A stretch of DNA of 62,996 nucleotides, counting the filler. It is 8 parts of 8 records of this genome, joined end to end, with 100 filler letters (N's around TTAATTAATTAA, not from the genome) between each part and the next. Parts side by side here need not be neighbours in the genome. Positions count along the whole stretch, not along the records: positions 31,255 to 36,262 come from SRR31147125_3711; 7 more parts are not named here. One strand, given 5' to 3'. Below are positions 12,074-57,558 of this stretch, in pieces. The translations under genes were made by a program, and so were the position numbers. The first letter of the stretch is position 1. Each line of letters begins with the position of its first letter. Under the pieces are notes generated by a model. It was not told where the DNA came from and made no database searches. It saw only the letters and a list, made by a program, of their open reading frames with translations.

Positions 12074-12173
12074 NNNNNNNNNNNNNNNNNNNNNNNNNNN
12101 NNNNNNNNNNNNNNNNNTTAATTAATTAANNNNNNNNNNNNNNNNNNNNNNNNNNNNNNNNNNNNNNNNNNNN
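12074..12173. other. artificial contig spacer
   Basis: N44-TTAATTAATTAA-N44, stops in all six frames. Confidence 0.99.
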
Positions 12174-22888: not shown

Positions 22889-22988
22889 NNNNNNNNNNNN
22901 NNNNNNNNNNNNNNNNNNNNNNNNNNNNNNNNTTAATTAATTAANNNNNNNNNNNNNNNNNNNNNNNNNNNNNNNNNNNNNNNNNNNN
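22889..22988. other. artificial contig spacer
   Basis: N44-TTAATTAATTAA-N44. Confidence 0.99.
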
Positions 22989-31154: not shown

Positions 31155-31254
31155 NNNNNNNNNNNNNNNNNNNNNNNNNNNNNNNNNNNNNNNNNNNNTT
31201 AATTAATTAANNNNNNNNNNNNNNNNNNNNNNNNNNNNNNNNNNNNNNNNNNNN
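31155..31254. other. artificial contig spacer
   Basis: N44-TTAATTAATTAA-N44. Confidence 0.99.
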
Positions 31255-31896: not shown

Positions 31897-32939
31897 GTGC
31901 AAATGAAGAAATATATACAGAAGCTAGACATCCTTTACTTTGTGTTAGGAATGTTGGGGTTTTTATCGCCATTCTATTTATTCGGCACATACAAATACGG
32001 AACAAAGTTGACACATATATTTGCAAAGAGTATTTCAATTTGGCTAGTGGTAGTTCTTATGAGCATAGTTTTAATTAATGTTATTGTAAGAAAAAAAATA
32101 GTTAAAATCTTCTTAAAAATATTAATCGTATCCTTTTTTTCATGTGTAATATCTATTTATTTCGTTCAGGATTCTATGGTTTTTATAGGGTATTACATGC
32201 AAAATGAAAGTTACATGCCTGATATAGACACAAAGTATGAAACATTAGAAAACGACGAAACTTTAAGTCAAATTCAGATAGAAAGCAAAGGAACTACATT
32301 AACTGGGTGGATAAAAAACTGTGACAAGCCTAATGCTCCTATCCTGATTATTTTTAACGGTAACGGAGGATTTGCAGGCTACACTATGGAAATGTACTCA
32401 GCTATAAGTGATGAATTAAACATCGTGCTTTTTGACTACAGGGGTTATGGGAAAAGCGAGGGTATTCCTAACCAAAACAATGTAAAAGAAGATGCATTAG
32501 CAATAATTGATTATTTTTGTGAAGATGAAAACTACAAATCATCAGAAATTTATGTTCTAGGATATAGTATAGGCACAGAAATCGCAACCTATGCAGCCGT
32601 AGAACGTCAGCTAGATGGTTTGATTTTAGTTACTCCATTTGATGATTTTGTGAATGTTTATAACGAAATGATTGATATATTTCACGACCATTTAGATGGC
32701 TTGTAAAATATCAATATAGTCCAATGAGAAATGTTAAAAATGCTGATGAGGATATTTTAATACTCTGCTCTGACAATGACGGAATGTTTTCCCCACAAAT
32801 GGCAGAAAACATACAAGAAGAAGCAAAAGGAAACGTACATATTTATAACCTTATTGAGCCTGATCACAATAGCTATTTCGCTGAAGCTTATAGAGATATT
32901 ACAAGCACATATATCGTTGATTTTATTAAAATGAACTAA
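31897..32939 (+). CDS. membrane-anchored alpha/beta hydrolase, split by a frameshift near 32686
   Basis: F.GNG, DYRGYGKSEG.P, GYSIG nucleophile elbow; Asp/His half in 32724-32939; one added G gives HGPFRWLVKYQY. Confidence 0.8.
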
Positions 32940-33605: not shown

Positions 33606-33998
33606 TTATTGCAATAGATTGACTCCGTAGCTCTGGATTACTTCAACATATTTATTGTTTTCACTATGCGAGGGATATGAACTCTGTTTAGGATAAATCC
33701 GCAAATACTTTGTCCCATCAATATCTAATACACTGCCTATTTCGTTAAGTTCATCACCAATCTCCCACAAAATAGAGCAAACCAATTTGGAGGTGGCAAC
33801 CGCCTCCTCATAGCTTTTGGCTCTGCATCTTACTTGCAGTCCAATGCGTTCAATACCTGCATCTTTTAATGAGGATTGTCCCCAATATCTATAAAGTCCT
33901 ATACATTCTGTTTCTCCCTCTGGAATTTTATTTAAAAACACTGGTACACTTATACCTTTGCTTATTAAGTATGTTTTAATATCCTTTATCATAGTCAT
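33606..33998 (-). CDS. phage minor capsid/tail-terminator-like protein
   Basis: IK.YL..KG, VFL..IP, IGLY.Y.G, GLQVRCRAKSYEEA pattern and ~130 aa size. Confidence 0.6.
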   Translation of the reverse strand: MTMIKDIKTYLISKGISVPVFLNKIPEGETECIGLYRYWGQSSLKDAGIERIGLQVRCRAKSYEEAVATSKLVCSILWEIGDELNEIGSVLDIDGTKYLRIYPKQSSYPSHSENNKYVEVIQSYGVNLLQ

Positions 33999-34280
33999 AT
34001 ATTCAACCTTCCTAAACTATCCTTATACTCATAATACTGGCTTAATAGTTATTTAAAATTTATTTTGTGTTGATATACATCATATGGCAAGTGTTATTAA
34101 ATAGTTACAATTTAACTGGATAATGAGCTGCTATGTAAGTTGACAAATGATGATTGCCTGTTTTTTGCAGGCAATGGTTTATATACGTATAAGCCAAAAT
34201 CATTGGACGAATAAAAATCCACCACTTGAAGTGATGGATCAAAGTATTTATTAATAGAATATATTATTTATTTTTATTTT

Positions 34281-35027
34281 TTATGGCATCTTCTTTTGCA
34301 ATTCCTCTTTTGGCAGCACATATTTTACATCGCAGTCAGTTGAATAATTATCAGAGAATACATTAAAAATCAAATCATTATCTATTGTATTATCCAATTC
34401 ATAAGCCACTTGACCTTTACCCTTATCTCCTGTTTCTAAATAACTTGGCAATCTTTCTACTTTATAAGTCAAATCTTTTTGGAACACCAATCCGTCTGTA
34501 TCATTTAATTTATAATCCAGATAAAGCACTGTGCTTATCTTACTAGGATAACTGCCTATGTATTTCAATTCATAATCAATTACCAATACTTTATTATCCT
34601 CGTCATCTTCCACATTATAGTCAGTAACTAGTATCTCGTAATCTCCGCTAAGAGCTTCTGTACCTACATTATATATTTGATCTGATTCAACATCATGCTT
34701 GTTAGAGTTTCCAGTGGTACCTATTAGTATAAAGATGACACCTATAACTGCACATATGATGATTTTTGTTTTTTTGGATATTTTATCACTTTTGATGATA
34801 ACAACAAATATCATGACATACCAGAACAATAACCATAGAATAATTTGAACCCAGATATTTTTCTTATTTACATTTTCCTCATGATTATAGTGTTTTTGCA
34901 CATACTTATTTGTTGTGTTTGTATTTTCAATATAAATGTTGACTTCTTTTTCCTCTTCTTTGACTTCGTATCCGCAATATGCGCATTTATTATCAACTAG
35001 GTTAGCACCACAGTTTTCACATTTCAT
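34281..35027 (-). CDS. zinc-ribbon, two-TM, DUF4352-like extracellular domain protein
   Basis: CENCGA....C.YCG, two TM helices, C-terminal L..GDKGKGQVAYE. Confidence 0.65.
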   Translation of the reverse strand: MKCENCGANLVDNKCAYCGYEVKEEEKEVNIYIENTNTTNKYVQKHYNHEENVNKKNIWVQIILWLLFWYVMIFVVIIKSDKISKKTKIIICAVIGVIFILIGTTGNSNKHDVESDQIYNVGTEALSGDYEILVTDYNVEDDEDNKVLVIDYELKYIGSYPSKISTVLYLDYKLNDTDGLVFQKDLTYKVERLPSYLETGDKGKGQVAYELDNTIDNDLIFNVFSDNYSTDCDVKYVLPKEELQKKMP

Positions 35028-35124
35028 ACTCTACTCTCTCCTATTAAATTTCTCCATATATTATACAATATTTTAAGTTGCTAAACAATATATTAACATA
35101 AATGGTTTTTAAAATAAACAGCCC

Positions 35125-35153
35125 TTGACAACCCAGCACAAATAATCTAAAAT
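35125..35153 (+). promoter_or_regulatory. sigma70/SigA promoter of the tyrS leader
   Basis: TTGACA (35125-35130), 17 bp, TAAAAT (35148-35153). Confidence 0.85.
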
Positions 35154-35177
35154 AACCTAAACTAAAAAGGAAACTCT

Positions 35178-35258
35178 ATGGCAAAATTTATTAATACAAT
35201 ATCTCTATATTATTACTATCAGCTAGATTTAAATAATCGAGCTTTTAGTGTTGTCTAA
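35178..35258 (+). CDS. tyrS attenuator leader peptide MAKFINTISLYYYYQLDLNNRAFSVV (26 aa)
   Basis: AAAAGG RBS 7 nt before ATG; TAT TAT TAC TAT at 35208-35219; TAA at 35256-35258. Confidence 0.8.
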   Translation: MAKFINTISLYYYYQLDLNNRAFSVV

Positions 35259-35284
35259 ATTTTCTTAAATTTCATGAAGATTAT

Positions 35285-35318
35285 GGCTTGAAGCTCAAAA
35301 GAGTTTCAAGCCTTTTTT
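35285..35318 (+). terminator. attenuator terminator (3:4 hairpin) upstream of tyrS
   Basis: GGCTTGAAGCTC-aaaa-GAGTTTCAAGCC-TTTTTT, ending 21 nt before the tyrS ATG. Confidence 0.88.
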
Positions 35319-35339
35319 AATACTTAAAAGGAGAATTAT

Positions 35340-36262
35340 ATGAAAGACATTATTAAGCAAATCAAAAAAGGCGCAGTTAACATCTACACAGAGGTAGCTT
35401 TAGATGAAAGGCTAAACTCAGGAAAAAAGCTAATCATCAAGCTAGGGGCAGACCCTAGTCGGCCGGATTTGCACTTAGGCCACACAGTAGTATTGCGAAA
35501 GCTAAAGTTATTTCAGGATTTAGGTCATGAAGTAGTATTTGTAATTGGTGATTTTACTGGAATGATAGGTGACCCTACAGGCAAAAGCAAAACACGTCCC
35601 GCTCTAACTTTGGAAGATACTCGAAAATCAGGGCAATCTTATTTTAATCAAGTTACAAAAATTTTAGATCCCAGCAAAACACGAATAGAGTACAATTCAA
35701 AATGGCTATCTAAACTTAACTTTGAGGATGTAATAAAATTAGCATCCAAATATACTCTTGCTAGAATATTAGAGCGAGATGACTTTAAAACACGTTATGC
35801 TAACAACGCTCCAATAAGCCTTCATGAGCTTTTGTATCCACTAGTGCAAGGCTATGATTCCGTTGCACTTAATGCAGACATCGAATTAGGTGGTACAGAC
35901 CAAACATTCAACTTGCTTGTTGGCAGATCACTGCAATCTAACTACAATCAGCAACCTCAAGTTGTTATGACATTTCCTTTGCTAGTTGGTCTTGACGGCA
36001 AGGAAAAGATGAGCAAATCATTAGATAACTACATTGGCATAGATGAACCTGCCAATGTAATATTTGAAAAGTGTATGAAAATACCTGATAATATCTTAGT
36101 TGATTATTTTGTCCTTACCACTGATATCACAAAAGATGAAGCACAGGAATTCATCAGCGAAGATATTAGAGAAGCTCATTTTCATTATGCAGATATTATA
36201 ACTACTATGTACCATAGCAAAGAGCAAAGTATAAAAGCAAAAGAGCACTATCTTACTATGGC
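35340..36262 (+). CDS. tyrS: tyrosine--tRNA ligase (TyrZ-like type), 3'-truncated
   Basis: KLGADPSRPDLHLGH, IGDPTGKS.TR, YPL.QGYDS, ELGGTDQ.FN, KMSKS. Confidence 0.96.
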
Positions 36263-36362
36263 NNNNNNNNNNNNNNNNNNNNNNNNNNNNNNNNNNNNNN
36301 NNNNNNTTAATTAATTAANNNNNNNNNNNNNNNNNNNNNNNNNNNNNNNNNNNNNNNNNNNN
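36263..36362. other. artificial contig spacer
   Basis: N44-TTAATTAATTAA-N44. Confidence 0.99.
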
Positions 36363-37211
36363 GCCAATCGTATGCGATAAAAAGAAAATATTTATCCAGA
36401 ATTTCATTGTAAATTATTTCAGGCTATTCAATATTCCCATTTATTATTCCATTGCTAAAACCACGATGAGCTACTCTTTCGCCTTTATCGCCGGCAGAAA
36501 TCGGAAGCCCGGTGTTTGGATTAAGTTGAAGGCGATAGATTCCATCCCACGATGAACCATAATAAAACCAGTGTTCGCCATTTTTACCAACTACAACAGA
36601 TGGATCGATTGCATTGGTATGAACCTGGTTATTATTTACCGATCGTACAACAATATCTTTTTCGACCCAGGTTCTAATGGTAACGATGAAGTTGCCAGGC
36701 CAATACAACTTAATCGTCCTAAATTTGAGGCAAGTGAATAATACAGTCTATATTCATCTCCAACTTTTATAACATAAGGAGCCCAAAGAGAATTGTTTGC
36801 GATACCACCTTTACTATTTATATAATCTGCACCTTTTGAAGGAATTGAATTAAACACCCATCCAACAAATTCCCATTCTATTAAATCTTTTGATTTTCTT
36901 ATTTGTAACCCGGGTTTAACCGATTCGCCAAAAGCCACATCGGTGCTGTAACAATAATATGTATCGCCACTTTTAATTATAGAAGGATCGTGAACGTTGT
37001 AGACCCCCCAACTATAGATATTTTCTACCGAAGCTAAATTATAATATGTGTCACTAATGCTGTTAATATCAAAAGTATCATTCTCAACAGGAGCGACATT
37101 CCCATTTCCGTTATTATCATTTACATCTAATTCTTCTTTATTACATGAAACAATAAAAACAGTTCCCAGCAGGATTATGATAATATTTAATTCTATCAGT
37201 TTCTCCTTCAT
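36363..37211 (-). CDS. GH43 endo-arabinanase-like lipoprotein, frameshifted near 36674 and 3'-truncated
   Basis: lipobox IVSC, VHDPSI, LWAP, NAIDP, YYGS..DGI, NIE.PEIIYN. Confidence 0.85.
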
Positions 37212-37346
37212 CTTTTGAAAAGCAAAAATGTATTAAAAAAAAGCCGGCTCAAAAAAATATAATCTAACTAAACTAACCCATTAAACAATGAATACAGAAC
37301 TTTTAAGAGCCGGGCTTTACATCTATTAATTTATTTCAAAAATCTT

Positions 37347-38927
37347 TTAGTTATATCCCTCATTTTGTACAGTACCAGTATTGGTATCCATCTCAACCTG
37401 AGGAATTGGAAAATACTCTCTTCCATCGACGAAAGTATTAAACTCATCATCGCGAGATTGTAACCAACTCAATTTAGTAGGATCATCCAACCATCCCCAC
37501 CGACGAATATCATCGAAACGATGACCTTCCAACGCAAATTCCAGGTAACGTTCATGTCCAATTTGTTCACGAATTTCTGCCTGAGACATTCCTGGTTTTG
37601 TCGTTTGCAGATTGGGAAGATTTACACGATCGCGAACCATTTGAATGTAATTATAAGCCTCACTTGTATTTCCAGTTTCATTTAAACTTTCAGCATACAT
37701 TAGCAGTACATCGGCATAACGCATAAGTCGTTCGTTAATACCTGATCGCCAATCAAACTCATCGGCATAATCTCCATCTGAATTTTGATACTTACGACAA
37801 TACAAATCATTTAAATCCGATTCATTAGCAGCATAAAATTCTGAAAATTTTTGACCATAAAGCATCATATCAACACTATCGTAGGCAAGTTTATTATAAA
37901 ATATGGTTGCATCAAGTCTTGGATCAACTTCTCCATCAACTGTTTTTTCCTCGCGAAATTCCCAAAACAAATTCCAGGTTGGCTGAACGTCTCTCCATCC
38001 AAAACCAGTTGGAGCATAGGTAATTGCTCTGGCAGAAGTACGTCCCCACCCTGAGGAAGGTATTCCTCCCCAGCTAAGATCTACTCCTCCTGCATCTCTA
38101 CTAAACTGAATTTCAAAAATCGATTCAGCATTATTTTCATTATATGCTGTAAAATTATCGCGATAATTATCGACAAGTGAATATACTCCTAAATCAATTA
38201 CTTGTTTAAATGTATTTTTCGCGGCTTCAAAATCCTGAGTAAACAACTGAGCCTTTCCTAAATATGCCAGAGCTGCACCTTTTGTTGCGCGACCAACCTG
38301 ACCTGCATCCAAACCAGAAACATTATTATAAGAAACAGGTAATAGTTCTGCCGCAGCAGCCATGTCTGATTTTATTTGTGCCCATCCTTCTTCATTTGTT
38401 TTTTGCGGATGATACAATTCTGCATTTGACGTTGGAAGAGGTACACTTTTAAACATTTTTACCAGGTGAAAAAGATATAATCCTCTAAGGAAATATGCTT
38501 GTCCTAAAACTCTGTCTTTTAATGCTTCATCTTCCATTTCCATATCAGTTACATTGTCGAATACCTGATTGGCTCTGAATATTCCTTGATAAAAATCGCG
38601 ATAAGCCCAGCCATAAATTGCAGCATCGGCAATGCTTGAGTTAAAGCGACCAACATTTGCCATAGCTGCCCACGGGCTGTTACTACGGGTTGCATCATCT
38701 TTTAAATCCAGCAGCAAACAGGTACTTCTCATGTATGTCCCGTCAATTAACATACTTCCATAAATTGAATTGACTCCTTTTACCGCATCTTCATCTGTTT
38801 TCCAAAACGATTCCTCGGTATTTACGTTTGGATCTACCTGAAGTAAATCGTCGTCGCTAACACAAGCCGACATAAAACTCACCAGGATAATCCAAATAGC
38901 TAAACGATATATTTTTTTATTTTTCAT
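37347..38927 (-). CDS. RagB/SusD family nutrient uptake lipoprotein
   Basis: lipobox MSAC, GQAYFLRG, GRATKGAA, MRYADVLLMYAE, EF.LEGHRF.DIRRW. Confidence 0.95.
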   Translation of the reverse strand: MKNKKIYRLAIWIILVSFMSACVSDDDLLQVDPNVNTEESFWKTDEDAVKGVNSIYGSMLIDGTYMRSTCLLLDLKDDATRSNSPWAAMANVGRFNSSIADAAIYGWAYRDFYQGIFRANQVFDNVTDMEMEDEALKDRVLGQAYFLRGLYLFHLVKMFKSVPLPTSNAELYHPQKTNEEGWAQIKSDMAAAAELLPVSYNNVSGLDAGQVGRATKGAALAYLGKAQLFTQDFEAAKNTFKQVIDLGVYSLVDNYRDNFTAYNENNAESIFEIQFSRDAGGVDLSWGGIPSSGWGRTSARAITYAPTGFGWRDVQPTWNLFWEFREEKTVDGEVDPRLDATIFYNKLAYDSVDMMLYGQKFSEFYAANESDLNDLYCRKYQNSDGDYADEFDWRSGINERLMRYADVLLMYAESLNETGNTSEAYNYIQMVRDRVNLPNLQTTKPGMSQAEIREQIGHERYLEFALEGHRFDDIRRWGWLDDPTKLSWLQSRDDEFNTFVDGREYFPIPQVEMDTNTGTVQNEGYN

Positions 38928-38952
38928 TTCGACTAATTTTTTTAGTTAACTG

Positions 38953-41900
38953 TTAGAAATTTAATTCCACACCAATTGCAAAGGTTCTTGGATTTGGAAA
39001 AGAACCAAAGTCATAACCTCTTGAGAATAATCCATCGCTGATAAAATCCGGATCGTATCCTGTGTATTTTGTAATTGTCAATAAGTTTTGCCCTGAAAGG
39101 TATACGCGAGCATTTTCGAATATATCTATACTATTAACCGGAATGTTATAACCAAGCTCCAGAGTTTGTAATTTTATAAACGAACCATCTTCAATAAAAC
39201 GATCTGATGCTCTTGCATTTTGGTTTGTTTCCAGCACATCGGGGCGAGGTATATTGGTATCGGTGTTAGATGCAGACCAGTAATCCAACATATCTGTATG
39301 ATGATTTAAAAGTCCACCAATCATTAAAGAGTTATAAGTTCCGTTATATACTTTATTACCGGCGCTTCCCTGCCAAAACATTGAAGCATCCCAGTTTTTA
39401 TACGAAGCACTTACATTTAATCCAAAGTTTACTTTTGGAATTGTTACTCCCTGGAAAGTTCGGTCATCATCGGTAATTAAACCATCGTCGTTTACATCCT
39501 TAAATTTTATGTCTCCCGGAACTGCTCCCGACTGAGTAGCATGAGCCGCAATGTCTTCTTCATTCTGAAAAATTCCTTCAGTTTCGTATGCATAAAGTTC
39601 GCCAATAGAACGACCAACTTCTGTTCTTGAATTTGTTCCGGTAATTGGAGTTCCTTCCAAACCAATCTTTAAAACTTCATTTTTTAAGGTACCTGCATTT
39701 GCCGTAATGTTGTATTTCAAATCATTTTCAGAGTTGCTGTACGACAAAACAAATTCAAAACCTGTATTTTGAACTGAGGCCGCATTTGTAGTTACGGTTT
39801 GTGCCCAATTTATATCAATTGTACCTGTTGAGTAAGGTAGTGGCACATCAGCTAATAAGTCGGTCGATTTCTTTTTGAAATATTCAGCTGTAAACTGAAG
39901 TTTGTTTTCAAAGAAACCAAATTCAGCTGCAACATTAACAGTTTCAGTATCCTCCCATTTTACATTCGGATCGGTTGCATCTACTACAATTGTTCCCGGA
40001 GCAAGTACATTGCCAAATAAATAACTGGCAAAAGCATTTGTTGTGGGTGTATATTGATATGCACCAATTGTATTGTTCCCCAAAGTACCATATCCACCTC
40101 TGAATTTCAGAGAATTCATCCAACTTGGTAAATTTATAAATTCCTCGTTATGTGCTTTCCATGCACCCGAAACTGAGAAATAACTACCCGAATTATTTGC
40201 TTCATTAAATAACGAAGATTTATCTTGTCTGAAATTGGCAGTAATAAGATATCTGTCGTCATAGCCATAATTTAAACGGCTTAGGTACGATACACCGGTA
40301 ATTGTACTTTCATATTCTCCGGTTGAGGTATCTTCGGCATATTCCAGATGACTGATTTCATTGTTTTCGTACCCAACACCTCTTGACCAATGGTTATAGT
40401 ACTTTGTTGTTTCCTGAATCCAACCGGCCAAAACATCGAATTTGTGCTTTTCTCTTTCAAAACTGTATGTTAAAAGATTATCGAGCGAAGTAAATGTTTT
40501 TCTACTATCTGTGATATCCAAAGACGATTCAGCATTTGTAGTAATATAATACCAACCAAGATCACTTGGAGGAATAAAACGGCGTGTATTAATATCCAGA
40601 TAGTCGTAACTTAAACTAAATTTATATTTCAATCCTTTTAAAATCTCATATTCAGCCCAACCATTCCCAATAAAACGATCACGGTTTGTCGTATTATCAT
40701 TAATTGTATTAAATCCAATAACATTCAGGGTAATAGCTTTTTGTGTTAAATTATCAGCACCACCAAATCCTCCTAAACGATTTTCATCATAAACAGGCAT
40801 TGTTGGAATAGCTTGCAATAAGTATACTACCGATGATTCCCATGAGTTGTACGAGTTAAATCCTTCTTTATCAGACTTTGTATATCCAATTTTTGCACCA
40901 TAACTAAATTTCCCTTTTTTACCACTTAAATTTAAGTTGGTGCTAACACGTTCATAATCCTGAGGAGTATCAATATAACTCGTATTTTTATAATAATTTA
41001 CATTGAAATTATACCCAATATTTTCGGCACCACCATTTAAGGTAACAGATTGATCCTGTACAATACCCGTTGTATATGCTGCATCCTGCCAATCGGTGTT
41101 CACATTGTTAATAAAATAAGGACTGGTTGGATCGTTTCCCGGCAAAATTTCGAGACCTGCATTTACATAAGCAGCATTTGTAATATTCTGATATCCGGTG
41201 CGGTCGGTAAGTGGAATTGTTTTAGGTATATTTTGAACACCAACAATTGACTTGATTTTTACACCAAGCTTTCCATCTTTACTCCCTTTTTTTGTTGTAA
41301 TAATTATTACTCCGTTTGCTCCTCGCACTCCATAAATAGCGGCAGAAGATGCATCCTTTAATATCTGGATTGATTCTATGTCTCCCGGTGCGAAATCATT
41401 TGGAGAGTCTACAATCATTCCATCAATAACAAATAAAGGATTATTATTATTGAATGAAGTAATACCACGAATTTTAATATTTACAACACCTCCCGGCTCA
41501 CCCGACGATTGTACTGTAACACCAGGAGCTTGCCCCTGAATCATTTTTGCCACATCGTAAGTAATTACTTTTTTAGCTTCGTCGGTATCAACTACACTTA
41601 CGGCACCTGTTAAATCCGATTTTTTCTGTGTACCGTATCCAACTACTACAACCTCTTCGAGTGATTTTGTATCTTCTTCTAATACTACATTTATATTTGA
41701 TTGATTTCCAACCAAAATTTCGGTTGAATTAAATCCAATAAATGAAAATACCAGAACATCATCTTCGTTAACAGAAACTGTATAATTTCCATCGAAATTT
41801 GTTACCGCCCCTGTTGTAGTTCCTTTAATTAACACATTTACACCAGGTAATGGCTCACCATCGTTTGATGTAACTTTCCCGTCAACCGATCTTTGCTGAG

Positions 41901-42000
41901 CGGAAAGCCCCAATGATAACAGAAACATATTCACCAAAAGTATAGCTGCAAATTTTGGCAAAAACGCTCTATTAGTAATTAACATTAATCTTTTATTCAT
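38953..42000 (-). CDS. SusC/RagA TonB-dependent transporter
   Basis: LEEVVVVGYGTQKK, DIESIQILKDASSAAIYG.RGANGVIIITTK, C-terminal F. Confidence 0.96.
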   Translation of the reverse strand: MNKRLMLITNRAFLPKFAAILLVNMFLLSLGLSAQQRSVDGKVTSNDGEPLPGVNVLIKGTTTGAVTNFDGNYTVSVNEDDVLVFSFIGFNSTEILVGNQSNINVVLEEDTKSLEEVVVVGYGTQKKSDLTGAVSVVDTDEAKKVITYDVAKMIQGQAPGVTVQSSGEPGGVVNIKIRGITSFNNNNPLFVIDGMIVDSPNDFAPGDIESIQILKDASSAAIYGVRGANGVIIITTKKGSKDGKLGVKIKSIVGVQNIPKTIPLTDRTGYQNITNAAYVNAGLEILPGNDPTSPYFINNVNTDWQDAAYTTGIVQDQSVTLNGGAENIGYNFNVNYYKNTSYIDTPQDYERVSTNLNLSGKKGKFSYGAKIGYTKSDKEGFNSYNSWESSVVYLLQAIPTMPVYDENRLGGFGGADNLTQKAITLNVIGFNTINDNTTNRDRFIGNGWAEYEILKGLKYKFSLSYDYLDINTRRFIPPSDLGWYYITTNAESSLDITDSRKTFTSLDNLLTYSFEREKHKFDVLAGWIQETTKYYNHWSRGVGYENNEISHLEYAEDTSTGEYESTITGVSYLSRLNYGYDDRYLITANFRQDKSSLFNEANNSGSYFSVSGAWKAHNEEFINLPSWMNSLKFRGGYGTLGNNTIGAYQYTPTTNAFASYLFGNVLAPGTIVVDATDPNVKWEDTETVNVAAEFGFFENKLQFTAEYFKKKSTDLLADVPLPYSTGTIDINWAQTVTTNAASVQNTGFEFVLSYSNSENDLKYNITANAGTLKNEVLKIGLEGTPITGTNSRTEVGRSIGELYAYETEGIFQNEEDIAAHATQSGAVPGDIKFKDVNDDGLITDDDRTFQGVTIPKVNFGLNVSASYKNWDASMFWQGSAGNKVYNGTYNSLMIGGLLNHHTDMLDYWSASNTDTNIPRPDVLETNQNARASDRFIEDGSFIKLQTLELGYNIPVNSIDIFENARVYLSGQNLLTITKYTGYDPDFISDGLFSRGYDFGSFPNPRTFAIGVELNF

Positions 42001-42049
42001 AAGTCGATAGTTTAAATTTGAAAAATTTTATCCTGCATTTTAAAATCTC

Positions 42050-43326
42050 TTACTTTTTAATTTTTCCTTTAATCATGGTAAACGAATGCGGAGCAAATGA
42101 ATAAGTAAACAGGTCAGAATCTTTCACTTTAATTGAAGGATTCTTTTGCGTATTTACGTTCGTTACTCCAAAATCGTTCACCGATTTAATATCAAAGTCC
42201 ATTTACTTCATACACCTCAAATTCGCCGTCAAAATTTCCTTCCTGCGAAATAATATCGGTTATTACCGCTTCATCTTTATTGCGGTTTACCACACAAATA
42301 GTTATATCATCGTTTTCGTATGTTGCCGAAACATCGAGAAAAGGCACATCTTTTTGAACTGTTGTAGATTCGCCAAGGCCGATAAAAAATTCATCGGTAT
42401 CGTACGTTTCGCAATCAACCAAAACATCAACCGATTGACCTTTTACATTATTTGCAAATAACTGTAATGGGTAAAAAATAGTTTGTTTAAACATGCCCTC
42501 TTCGGAAGTAAAAATTGGAGCAATAACATTAACAAGCTGAGCCATGTTAGCCATTTTAACCACATCGGCATTTCTGATAAAAACATTCAGGAATCCTGCA
42601 ATTACCAGCGCATCTTCTAAATTATAATGTTCTTCTAAAGCACGGTCGCCGGTCATGTGTTCTCCAACCCGCGCACGGTACCAGATATTATATTCATCCC
42701 AGGCTATATAAATAGGATCGCGATCGCCACGATCGGCATTTTCCATTTCCCGGGCTATCATTCCTTTTACAATTTGAGTTCGTTGTTCGCAAACCAATGG
42801 GCTTGAAACAAAATTGTAATAACTGTCTGCCGGATTACCTACATAAATATGTAATGCAATATAATCTACTACATCGCGCAATTCATTTAAAATAGTTGCA
42901 TTCCACTCATTTGGATCAGCATCGGGACGATAATTCGAAGAACCGGCCGCAATTAATTTGATTTCGGGCGAAGTTAGTTTCATTAACTTGGCTGCTTCGC
43001 GTGCTTTTTTGCTGTAGTCTTCGGCATTTAAATGACCCATTTGCCAAAAACCATCCATCTCGTTTCCTAAACTCCAGTATTTAATATTATGTGGTTCAGG
43101 ATATCCGTGTTTTTTACGTAACTCGGCATAGTACGGTCCTTCTTTTACGTTGCAATATTCCACCCAGTTTTGAGCTTCTTCGATGGTTCCGGTACCCATA
43201 TTAACTGCGAAATAGGGCTCAGTATTCATTCGTTTGGCATATTCAATAAACTCGTTTGTCCCAAATCTATTTGATTCTAAACGAGCCCATGCCAGTTCCA
43301 TTCTTGGCGGACGTTCATCTTTTGGC
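42050..43326 (-). CDS. GH51 alpha-L-arabinofuranosidase, 5'-truncated, frameshift near 42195
   Basis: FGTNEF, WSLGNEMDG.WQ.G, DEYN.W, ANMAQLVNVIAPI; tail ...FAPHSFTMIKGKIKK* in a shifted frame. Confidence 0.9.
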
Positions 43327-43426
43327 NNNNNNNNNNNNNNNNNNNNNNNNNNNNNNNNNNNNNNNNNNNNTTAATTAATTAANNNNNNNNNNNNNNNNNN
43401 NNNNNNNNNNNNNNNNNNNNNNNNNN
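43327..43426. other. artificial contig spacer
   Basis: N44-TTAATTAATTAA-N44. Confidence 0.99.
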
Positions 43427-49001: not shown

Positions 49002-49101
49002 NNNNNNNNNNNNNNNNNNNNNNNNNNNNNNNNNNNNNNNNNNNNTTAATTAATTAANNNNNNNNNNNNNNNNNNNNNNNNNNNNNNNNNNNNNNNNNNN
49101 N
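49002..49101. other. artificial contig spacer
   Basis: N44-TTAATTAATTAA-N44. Confidence 0.99.
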
Positions 49102-57458: not shown

Positions 57459-57558
57459 NNNNNNNNNNNNNNNNNNNNNNNNNNNNNNNNNNNNNNNNNN
57501 NNTTAATTAATTAANNNNNNNNNNNNNNNNNNNNNNNNNNNNNNNNNNNNNNNNNNNN
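57459..57558. other. artificial contig spacer
   Basis: N44-TTAATTAATTAA-N44. Confidence 0.99.

Follow-up and report, generated by a model that had tools for sequence, protein, structure and literature searches.

How is a Firmicute tyrosyl-tRNA synthetase (TyrRS) gene, tyrS, controlled when no T-box precedes it? The question is raised by a stretch of 62,996 nucleotides (nt), here called the window, which consists of eight contigs with N linkers between them and carries tyrS and its leader on a single 5008-base contig (31255-36262). Firmicute tyrS and tyrZ genes are typically controlled by a Tyr T-box (RF00230). An initial annotation of the window proposed that a leader peptide with a run of Tyr codons has taken the place of the T-box in front of this gene. 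Our analysis of the locus and its relatives makes it likely that, in a group of uncultured Clostridia, the gene, which encodes a Thermus-type TyrRS, is controlled by a ribosome-mediated transcription attenuator that senses charged tRNA-Tyr.

The promoter, ribosome-binding site, 26-codon upstream open reading frame (uORF) with four Tyr codons and terminator before tyrS were all found where the initial annotation had placed them, on the plus strand like every leader feature described below. The promoter (35125-35153) is of the sigma-70 type, with a -35 box equal to the consensus, a 17-nt spacer and a -10 box that matches at 5 of 6 positions; with 11 of 12 matches, it ranked at the top of 16 promoter-like sites in 34000-36400. 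A Shine-Dalgarno (SD)-like purine stretch (35166-35171) lies about 7 nt upstream of the ATG of the uORF (35178-35258, 26 codons plus stop), and an SD-like 4-mer was scored 11 nt upstream of the same ATG. The four Tyr codons (35208-35219), which would serve as the sensor, follow one another directly as codons 11-14, and there is no other Tyr codon in the frame. None of 1000 dinucleotide shuffles of the leader contained an ATG-initiated frame with a run of at least four Tyr codons.

The rest of the leader can be drawn as alternative hairpins. Hairpin 1:2, the anti-antiterminator (35214-35250, -11.0 kcal/mol), is present in the minimum-free-energy fold and is larger than first described, with the final two Tyr codons on its 5' side and segment 2 on its 3' side. 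This segment (35239-35249), the 5' strand of the antiterminator, can pair with 35286-35296 in the 5' arm of the terminator at 10 of 11 positions, the 2:3 pairing that had been proposed. The antiterminator encloses a small 7-base-pair hairpin between the stop codon and the terminator (35258-35282), which exists as claimed but had been quoted with one extra base in its 3' arm, the true pairs joining 35258-35264 to 35276-35282. No equivalent of this hairpin was seen when the sequences of the relatives were inspected without a dedicated test. The intrinsic terminator (segments 3 and 4, 35285-35318) consists of a stem-loop (35285-35312) with 12 pairs, six of them G-C, and a 4-nt loop, followed by a tract of six T (35313-35318), and folds at -18.6 kcal/mol. 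An SD site (35328-35333) precedes the start of tyrS at 35340. Because the 27-nt gap between the T tract and this ATG leaves no room for a second promoter, expression of tyrS requires read-through of the terminator.

The claim that the 5' untranslated region lacks a T-box also held. An Rfam search of the whole window gave no match at the gathering thresholds, T-boxes included, and among the 11 matches obtained for 34950-35450 at an E-value (E) of at most 10 (best E 0.36) none was a T-box. The leader families of Rfam include Trp, His, Leu, Thr and similar leaders, and no amino-acid leader family was among the matches in the window or the leader region. The same search recovers T-boxes before the tyrS genes of relatives and therefore provides a positive control for the null result in the window.

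For the comparison with relatives, the TyrRS fragment of the window was scanned against species-representative genomes, against 60 relatives of the genome that holds one of the resulting loci (L001) and against metagenome contigs. The same layout was found before an orthologous tyrS in 15 further loci, with a TyrRS 62-81% identical to that of the window where measured, so that the Tyr-rich uORF and the terminator are conserved in relatives as expected. The resulting 16 leaders are those of the window, L001 (the same locus as L104), L007, L101-L103, L105-L108, L131, L132, L134, L136, L232 and L233, and all of them adjoin tyrS directly. From the species-representative scan 80 loci were kept, and the 11 closest ones (64-71% identity) were inspected upstream of the gene; two have a Tyr-rich uORF and a terminator (L001, from a Clostridia metagenome-assembled genome, and L007, from a genome titled Acetivibrio sp. 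MSJd-27) and nine have a T-box (L002-L006, L008-L011). A window-type TyrRS is encoded by 15 of the 60 relatives of the L001 genome. The eight at 64-81% identity (L101-L108) all carry the Tyr uORF and terminator, and the seven at 52-56% identity (L109-L115) all carry T-boxes. The metagenome scan likewise kept 80 loci, and the nine examined include four leaders (L131, L132, L134, L136), two T-boxes (L137, L139) and one distant locus with nothing.

A covariance model (R1) was built from 14 of the leaders. Over 151 relatives of the L007 genome it returned the two leaders outside the model, L232 and L233, both before tyrS, and over 151 relatives of the L001 genome it returned only the eight leaders already known. 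There was no match to R1 on 20 control loci with a T-box or without a leader (best E 5.7), and in each of five related genomes the tyrS leader was the only strong match. Several candidates were discarded along the way: L223, the next R1 match at 32.8 bits, has no Tyr uORF and stands before a converging gene; L234, an R1 match in genome G186, is a bare terminator; the leader label of L059 was a false positive caused by a Phe-rich 44-codon open reading frame (ORF) in a Pseudomonadota contig; and the T-box labels given to L014 and L164 by regular expression were not confirmed by Rfam.

The 16 leaders share a common anatomy in which uORF, Tyr codons, stop codon and terminator keep their register. 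Their uORFs are 25-32 codons long, with 3-7 Tyr codons, a longest Tyr run of 2-5 and in some cases two separate runs, and Tyr is the commonest residue (82 of 459, 17.9%). Since it is encoded by both TAT (60 codons) and TAC (22 codons), the meaning of the codons has been kept and not their bases. When 14 leaders were compared with 1000 shuffles each, the observed Tyr run was equalled or exceeded in no shuffle for nine leaders and in at most 17 shuffles for the remaining five. Between the stop codon and the terminator there are 15-30 nt; the terminator folds at -13.6 to -23.9 kcal/mol and lies 21-46 nt upstream of the tyrS ATG. In most leaders a hairpin carries the Tyr codons in its loop or 5' side, and its 3' strand continues into a segment able to pair with the 5' arm of the terminator, and a segment with this pairing potential is found in every leader. 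Promoter-like boxes occur at a distance similar to that in the window, and 12 of the 16 leaders have an SD-like site. L103, L107 and L108 have none, and just 6-7 nt separate the end of their best -10 box from the ATG of the uORF, which fits a leaderless start; L132 has neither an SD-like site nor a leaderless position, which brings the leaders with start signals to 15 of 16. Outside the Tyr codons, the leader peptides diverge. In L102 segment 2 is read in a different frame from L101 and the window but retains its bases; segment 2 is therefore conserved as RNA and not as peptide.

The behavior of the switch was modeled in constrained folds of 14 leaders, in which the ribosome covered -15 to +13 around the A-site codon; the transcript was cut before the 3' arm of the terminator and the ribosome was placed at several positions. 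The stall and stop geometry behaved as predicted by the initial annotation. When the ribosome was placed on the first Tyr codon of the run, 13 of 14 leaders paired the 5' arm of the terminator, over 7 nt or more, with the bases immediately upstream of the uORF stop; a ribosome on the last Tyr codon allowed this pairing in 12 of 14. While the ribosome occupied the Tyr codons of the window, segment 2 took up 10 of the 12 nt of the arm. A ribosome on the stop codon, on the other hand, removed the partner of the arm in 13 of 14 leaders, with 0 nt paired in the window; the exception was L007, in which the range of partners still reaches the stretch upstream of the stop.

The pairing strands were also compared with shuffled and permuted sequences. 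The duplex of segment 2 with the arm in the window (-11.4 kcal/mol) is more stable than the mean of its shuffles (-6.1 kcal/mol), the fraction as low being 0.017 in 300 shuffles, and the corresponding fractions for the 14 leaders lie between 0.003 and 0.447. Combinations of each leader's own segment 2 and own arm averaged -13.24 kcal/mol, against -10.66 +/- 0.68 kcal/mol for permuted combinations (0 of 10000 as low), a comparison that is confounded by relatedness. In the alignment of 14 leaders, the terminator has 93.9% of cells paired and six compensatory pairs, and none of 500 shuffles scored as high. The antiterminator in the register of the window has 80.7% of cells paired, against 64.2% and 58.3% when slid by one column, and compensatory changes at two pairs. 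A narrower alignment (A2) was rejected, as it misaligned segment 2 between subgroups.

From these observations we infer a mechanism in which the uORF is translated and the position of the ribosome settles a kinetic competition between hairpins. Transcription would start a few bases downstream of the -10 box, and the 26-codon leader would be entered by a ribosome. If Tyr-tRNA is scarce, the ribosome would stall on the four Tyr codons and melt or block the 5' side of hairpin 1:2; segment 2, thus freed, would pair with the nascent 5' arm of the terminator and prevent the terminator from forming, and RNA polymerase would continue over the next 27 nt into tyrS. With abundant Tyr-tRNA, the ribosome would reach the stop codon at 35256, where it would cover segment 2 or allow 1:2 to re-form behind it, so that the terminator would form and transcription would end. 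The direction of regulation would therefore be induction of tyrS when charged tRNA-Tyr runs short.

Several results weigh against this scheme. Once the complete terminator is present, the equilibrium fold keeps it in 13 of 14 leaders under any placement of the ribosome. Only a kinetic switch, like that of the trp operon, could therefore work, and we assume one here. Covariation had been anticipated in both stems and was found in the 3:4 terminator; the paired fraction of the 2:3 antiterminator is hardly above that of column shuffles (79.6%; 140 of 500 as high), and its covariation score was reached in 106 of 500 shuffles. When own partners were ranked against foreign partners, the subgroup of the window reached only positions 3, 7, 7, 10 and 13 of 14, so the own-partner signal mostly reflects differences between subgroups. 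In five of 14 leaders the antiterminator is already part of the lowest-energy fold without any ribosome, and the untranslated default in these leaders may therefore be read-through. Finally, the stop codon of L101 lies 14 nt past segment 2; because a ribosome at the stop would leave segment 2 uncovered, termination in this leader would rely on hairpin 1:2 re-forming.

The alternative that survives best is a translation-independent RNA switch, in which tRNA-Tyr, free tyrosine or a protein such as TyrRS binds the leader and the reading frame is incidental. The position of the Tyr codons in the loop or 5' side of a conserved hairpin suits this idea, as they could face the anticodon of a tRNA in the manner of a T-box specifier loop, and the leader of the window indeed folds better than its shuffles (z-score -3.9; 0 of 200 equally low). 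However, neither the T-box nor any other Rfam model matches the leader, the frame is open from ATG to stop in all 16 leaders, and its start signals are present in all but one of them. The variable number of Tyr codons and their occasional division into two runs suit a ribosome counter more than a fixed binding pocket, and little of the RNA is conserved beyond segment 2 and the terminator (mean column identity 52%). We therefore consider a switch of this kind unlikely.

A general sensor of translation stress would work through the same hairpins as the Tyr-specific attenuator: any slowing of the ribosome, by antibiotics or global starvation, would lead to read-through, as in ermC-type leaders, and the Tyr specificity of the window leader is predicted from its sequence. 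Such a sensor is very improbable, since enrichment in Tyr is the sole conserved feature of otherwise divergent peptides, the controlled gene is a Tyr-specific synthetase, no conserved arrest-peptide motif was seen in the leader peptides and the conserved C-terminal residues change frame in L102. That the uORF is a functional micro-protein with its own terminator, and that tyrS is expressed without regulation by constitutive leakage, is scarcely credible: the length and position of the ORF are conserved, but the peptide is poorly conserved save for Tyr and the segment-2 stretch (with the frame change in L102), the short distance between terminator and tyrS leaves no room for a promoter, and terminators of such stability before an essential-type gene are sensible only if they can be bypassed.

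If a Tyr-reading attenuator precedes tyrS in the window, the distribution of T-boxes around it bears on how it arose. Before the related tyrS genes, the Rfam T-box model scored 101.8 bits in L002 and 70-90 bits in L003-L006 and L008-L011 (E at most 3.8e-13); it also matched L109-L115 (E at most 1.2e-14), and L137 and L139 were confirmed as well (E at most 3.8e-13). No leader locus scanned with Rfam, including L001 and L007, contained a T-box. Seven leader-bearing genomes that were searched hold 9-19 T-box matches each elsewhere, so the T-box machinery has not been lost from these bacteria. TyrRS relationships were examined in an unrooted tree of 68 rows (IQ-TREE quick search, with support from the Shimodaira-Hasegawa-like approximate likelihood ratio test only), which omits L104 (the L001 locus), L103 (lost in the ORF filter), L232 and L233 and represents about 100 distant rows without a leader by 12 random ones. 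A clade of 26 rows (support 97) splits into three groups, namely four leader rows including the window (96), 11 T-box rows (98), and nine leaders together with L133 and L135 (99). The best tree places all 15 rows of both leader groups on one side of a branch with a support of 78.9, and the data are therefore compatible with the leader having arisen once. Apart from these, a Firmicute clade of 19 rows has T-box labels only, seven of them confirmed by Rfam and the rest assigned by regular expression. The initial annotation had held that the leader replaced a T-box. T-boxes are indeed found in both close and distant Firmicute homologues, and their distribution suggests that the T-box is ancestral and was later replaced by the leader, a direction taken from an unrooted tree whose key branch has a support of 78.9%.

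Two observations on these clades deserve mention. In L133 and L135, close metagenome loci that fall within the leader clade, tyrS has no leader and follows immediately after another gene, and neither Rfam nor R1 gave a match there; control of these genes either lies beyond the 700 nt upstream that were examined or has been lost. In the sister T-box clade, eight of 11 loci (L002, L003, L004, L006, L008, L011, L137, L139) have a mini-ORF after the T-box terminator, with a strong SD, about 17-35 codons and 2-3 Tyr codons, which in most cases follow directly after a small hairpin; the frame reaches up to or into the start of tyrS. L005, L009 and L010 have no mini-ORF between the T-box terminator and tyrS, and R1 does not match the mini-ORFs. 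Such frames may sense Tyr in a second step, or they may represent a transitional state between T-box and leader peptide. A tentative and rather doubtful scenario is that in this Clostridia clade a Tyr leader took the place of the T-box before an auxiliary TyrRS gene of the Thermus type, in a single event, and that the sister clade has kept the intermediate. If true, this gene lineage would show the stepwise replacement of a tRNA-reading riboswitch by a ribosome-reading one, and its leader would be the first tyrosine-specific leader-peptide sensor found for any synthetase in the literature searched.

The genomes that carry the leader commonly encode two TyrRS enzymes. The tyrS of the window (35340-36262, plus strand) is the final gene of its contig and is truncated by the contig end after 307 codons, so that the C-terminal quarter of the protein is missing, and the fragment matches the TIGR00234 profile with 302.2 bits (cut-off 113.8; E 6e-90). 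Its nearest solved structure is the TyrRS of Thermus thermophilus (1h3e, E 2e-103), against about E 1e-24 for the enzyme structures from E. coli, S. aureus and Geobacillus, and it clusters with Clostridia in both the homologue scan and the tree. A second TyrRS, about 30% identical to that of the window and belonging to the same type as the enzymes with structures from E. coli, S. aureus and Geobacillus, is present in seven of the eight leader-bearing relatives of L001, the set to which this comparison applies. The seven second genes (L211-L217) have neither a T-box nor a Tyr-run uORF and have putative promoters close upstream; in L214 and L216, incidental ORFs holding a pair of Tyr codons were flagged. 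The window enzyme may correspond to the TyrZ type, and in B. subtilis tyrZ is reportedly under the control of a MarR regulator and a T box. The arrangement suggests that the second TyrRS is a constitutive housekeeping enzyme and the Thermus-type TyrRS an inducible one. The absence of a T-box and a Tyr-run uORF before the second gene in seven of eight genomes leads us to regard the leader-controlled gene as probably an auxiliary synthetase, induced when charging of tRNA-Tyr fails. A comparable arrangement is given for B. subtilis TyrZ and an indolmycin-resistant TrpRS in a review (PMC9437257). The Thermus-type TyrRS of such bacteria is suggested to act as an inducible back-up enzyme.

Viewed against known systems, the predicted switch is a classical attenuator with a new amino-acid specificity (Tyr) and a new target gene (tyrS). 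To our knowledge, published cases of leader-peptide attenuation concern Trp, His, Phe, Leu, Thr and Ile/Val, and among synthetase genes they cover pheST, trpS, leuS and hisS paralogues. The E. coli pheM-pheST system is a leader-peptide attenuator, and an auxiliary antibiotic-resistant TrpRS gene is reportedly under ribosome-mediated attenuation, to judge by the title of a 2010 paper by Vecchione and Sello in J Bacteriol. The window resembles pheM-pheST in having a short ORF rich in cognate codons, terminator and antiterminator hairpins and a synthetase gene that would be controlled by ribosome stalling; it differs from that system, which reads Phe codons in another phylum, in that its Tyr leader has no sequence relation to it and no match to an Rfam leader family. 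PMC1262725 (Seliverstov et al. 2005) names pheST as the proteobacterial precedent, predicts Streptomyces attenuators for trpS and leuS and states that classical attenuation was then not known for any synthetase gene of Firmicutes. The Streptomyces cases are alike in placing a classical attenuator before a synthetase gene in a Gram-positive organism, and the auxiliary trpS copy parallels the two TyrRS types described above. They are unlike the window in that they belong to Actinobacteria and read Trp or Leu codons, whereas the present system belongs to Firmicutes and reads Tyr codons.

The closest parallels within Firmicutes are leaders with His codons. Naville and Gautheret 2010 (PMC2965389) describe His leader peptides before the hisS paralogues hisZ and hisS* in bacilli, and PMC9413887 describes his operons under His-leader attenuators in three Firmicute lineages. 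To cite pheST alone for leader-peptide control of a synthetase, as the initial annotation did, was too narrow, given the trpS and leuS attenuators of Streptomyces (PMC1262725) and the hisS paralogues of bacilli. In both the His cases and the present one, a regular leader peptide stands where relatives carry a T-box, and both rest on comparative prediction; the former have His codons before other genes, and the latter has Tyr codons before tyrS. The words 'tyrosine' and 'tyrS' do not occur in the text of PMC2965389, a count that stops short of its supplements. A full-text literature search, with subscription journals and supplementary files outside its coverage, likewise found no description of a leader peptide for tyrosine or tyrS, in agreement with the view that attenuation of tyrS by a leader peptide is undescribed. 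A Tyr-reading tyrS leader would therefore be a further Firmicute synthetase gene that escapes the T-box rule. It has in common with the Tyr T-box the gene family, the tRNA-Tyr charging signal and read-through of a leader terminator as the output; the T-box reads uncharged tRNA by RNA-RNA contacts, whereas the presumed reader of the window leader is the ribosome. T-box and leader peptide before orthologous genes in sister clades thus offer a natural comparison of two sensors for one signal. The Tyr leader also flags unannotated small ORFs missed by genome annotation.

The surroundings of the leader in the window were also examined. Seven identical linkers, each of 44 N, a 12-base stop-rich spacer and 44 N, occupy 12074-12173, 22889-22988, 31155-31254, 36263-36362, 43327-43426, 49002-49101 and 57459-57558. 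Since the window is eight joined contigs, genes that touch a linker are cut and adjacency across linkers is meaningless. The tyrS contig has a G+C content of 0.32. The contig that follows it (36363-43326) carries genes of a kind typical of Bacteroidota (GH43, SusD-family and TonB-dependent receptor genes); because the TyrRS is of the Clostridia type, the assembly or bin probably mixes organisms, and only the tyrS contig bears on the finding. Upstream of the leader on this contig, a 130-residue ORF on the minus strand (33606-33998) has a weak match to the Pfam family Phage_tail_terminator_6 (E 5e-6, 27.0 bits against a cut-off of 23.8) and may be a prophage remnant. An alpha/beta-hydrolase ORF (31897-32706, plus strand) is followed 18 nt downstream by a 71-residue ORF on the same strand (32724-32939) without a Pfam match; judged from its translation alone, the shorter frame may continue the hydrolase ORF, as in a frameshift or split gene.

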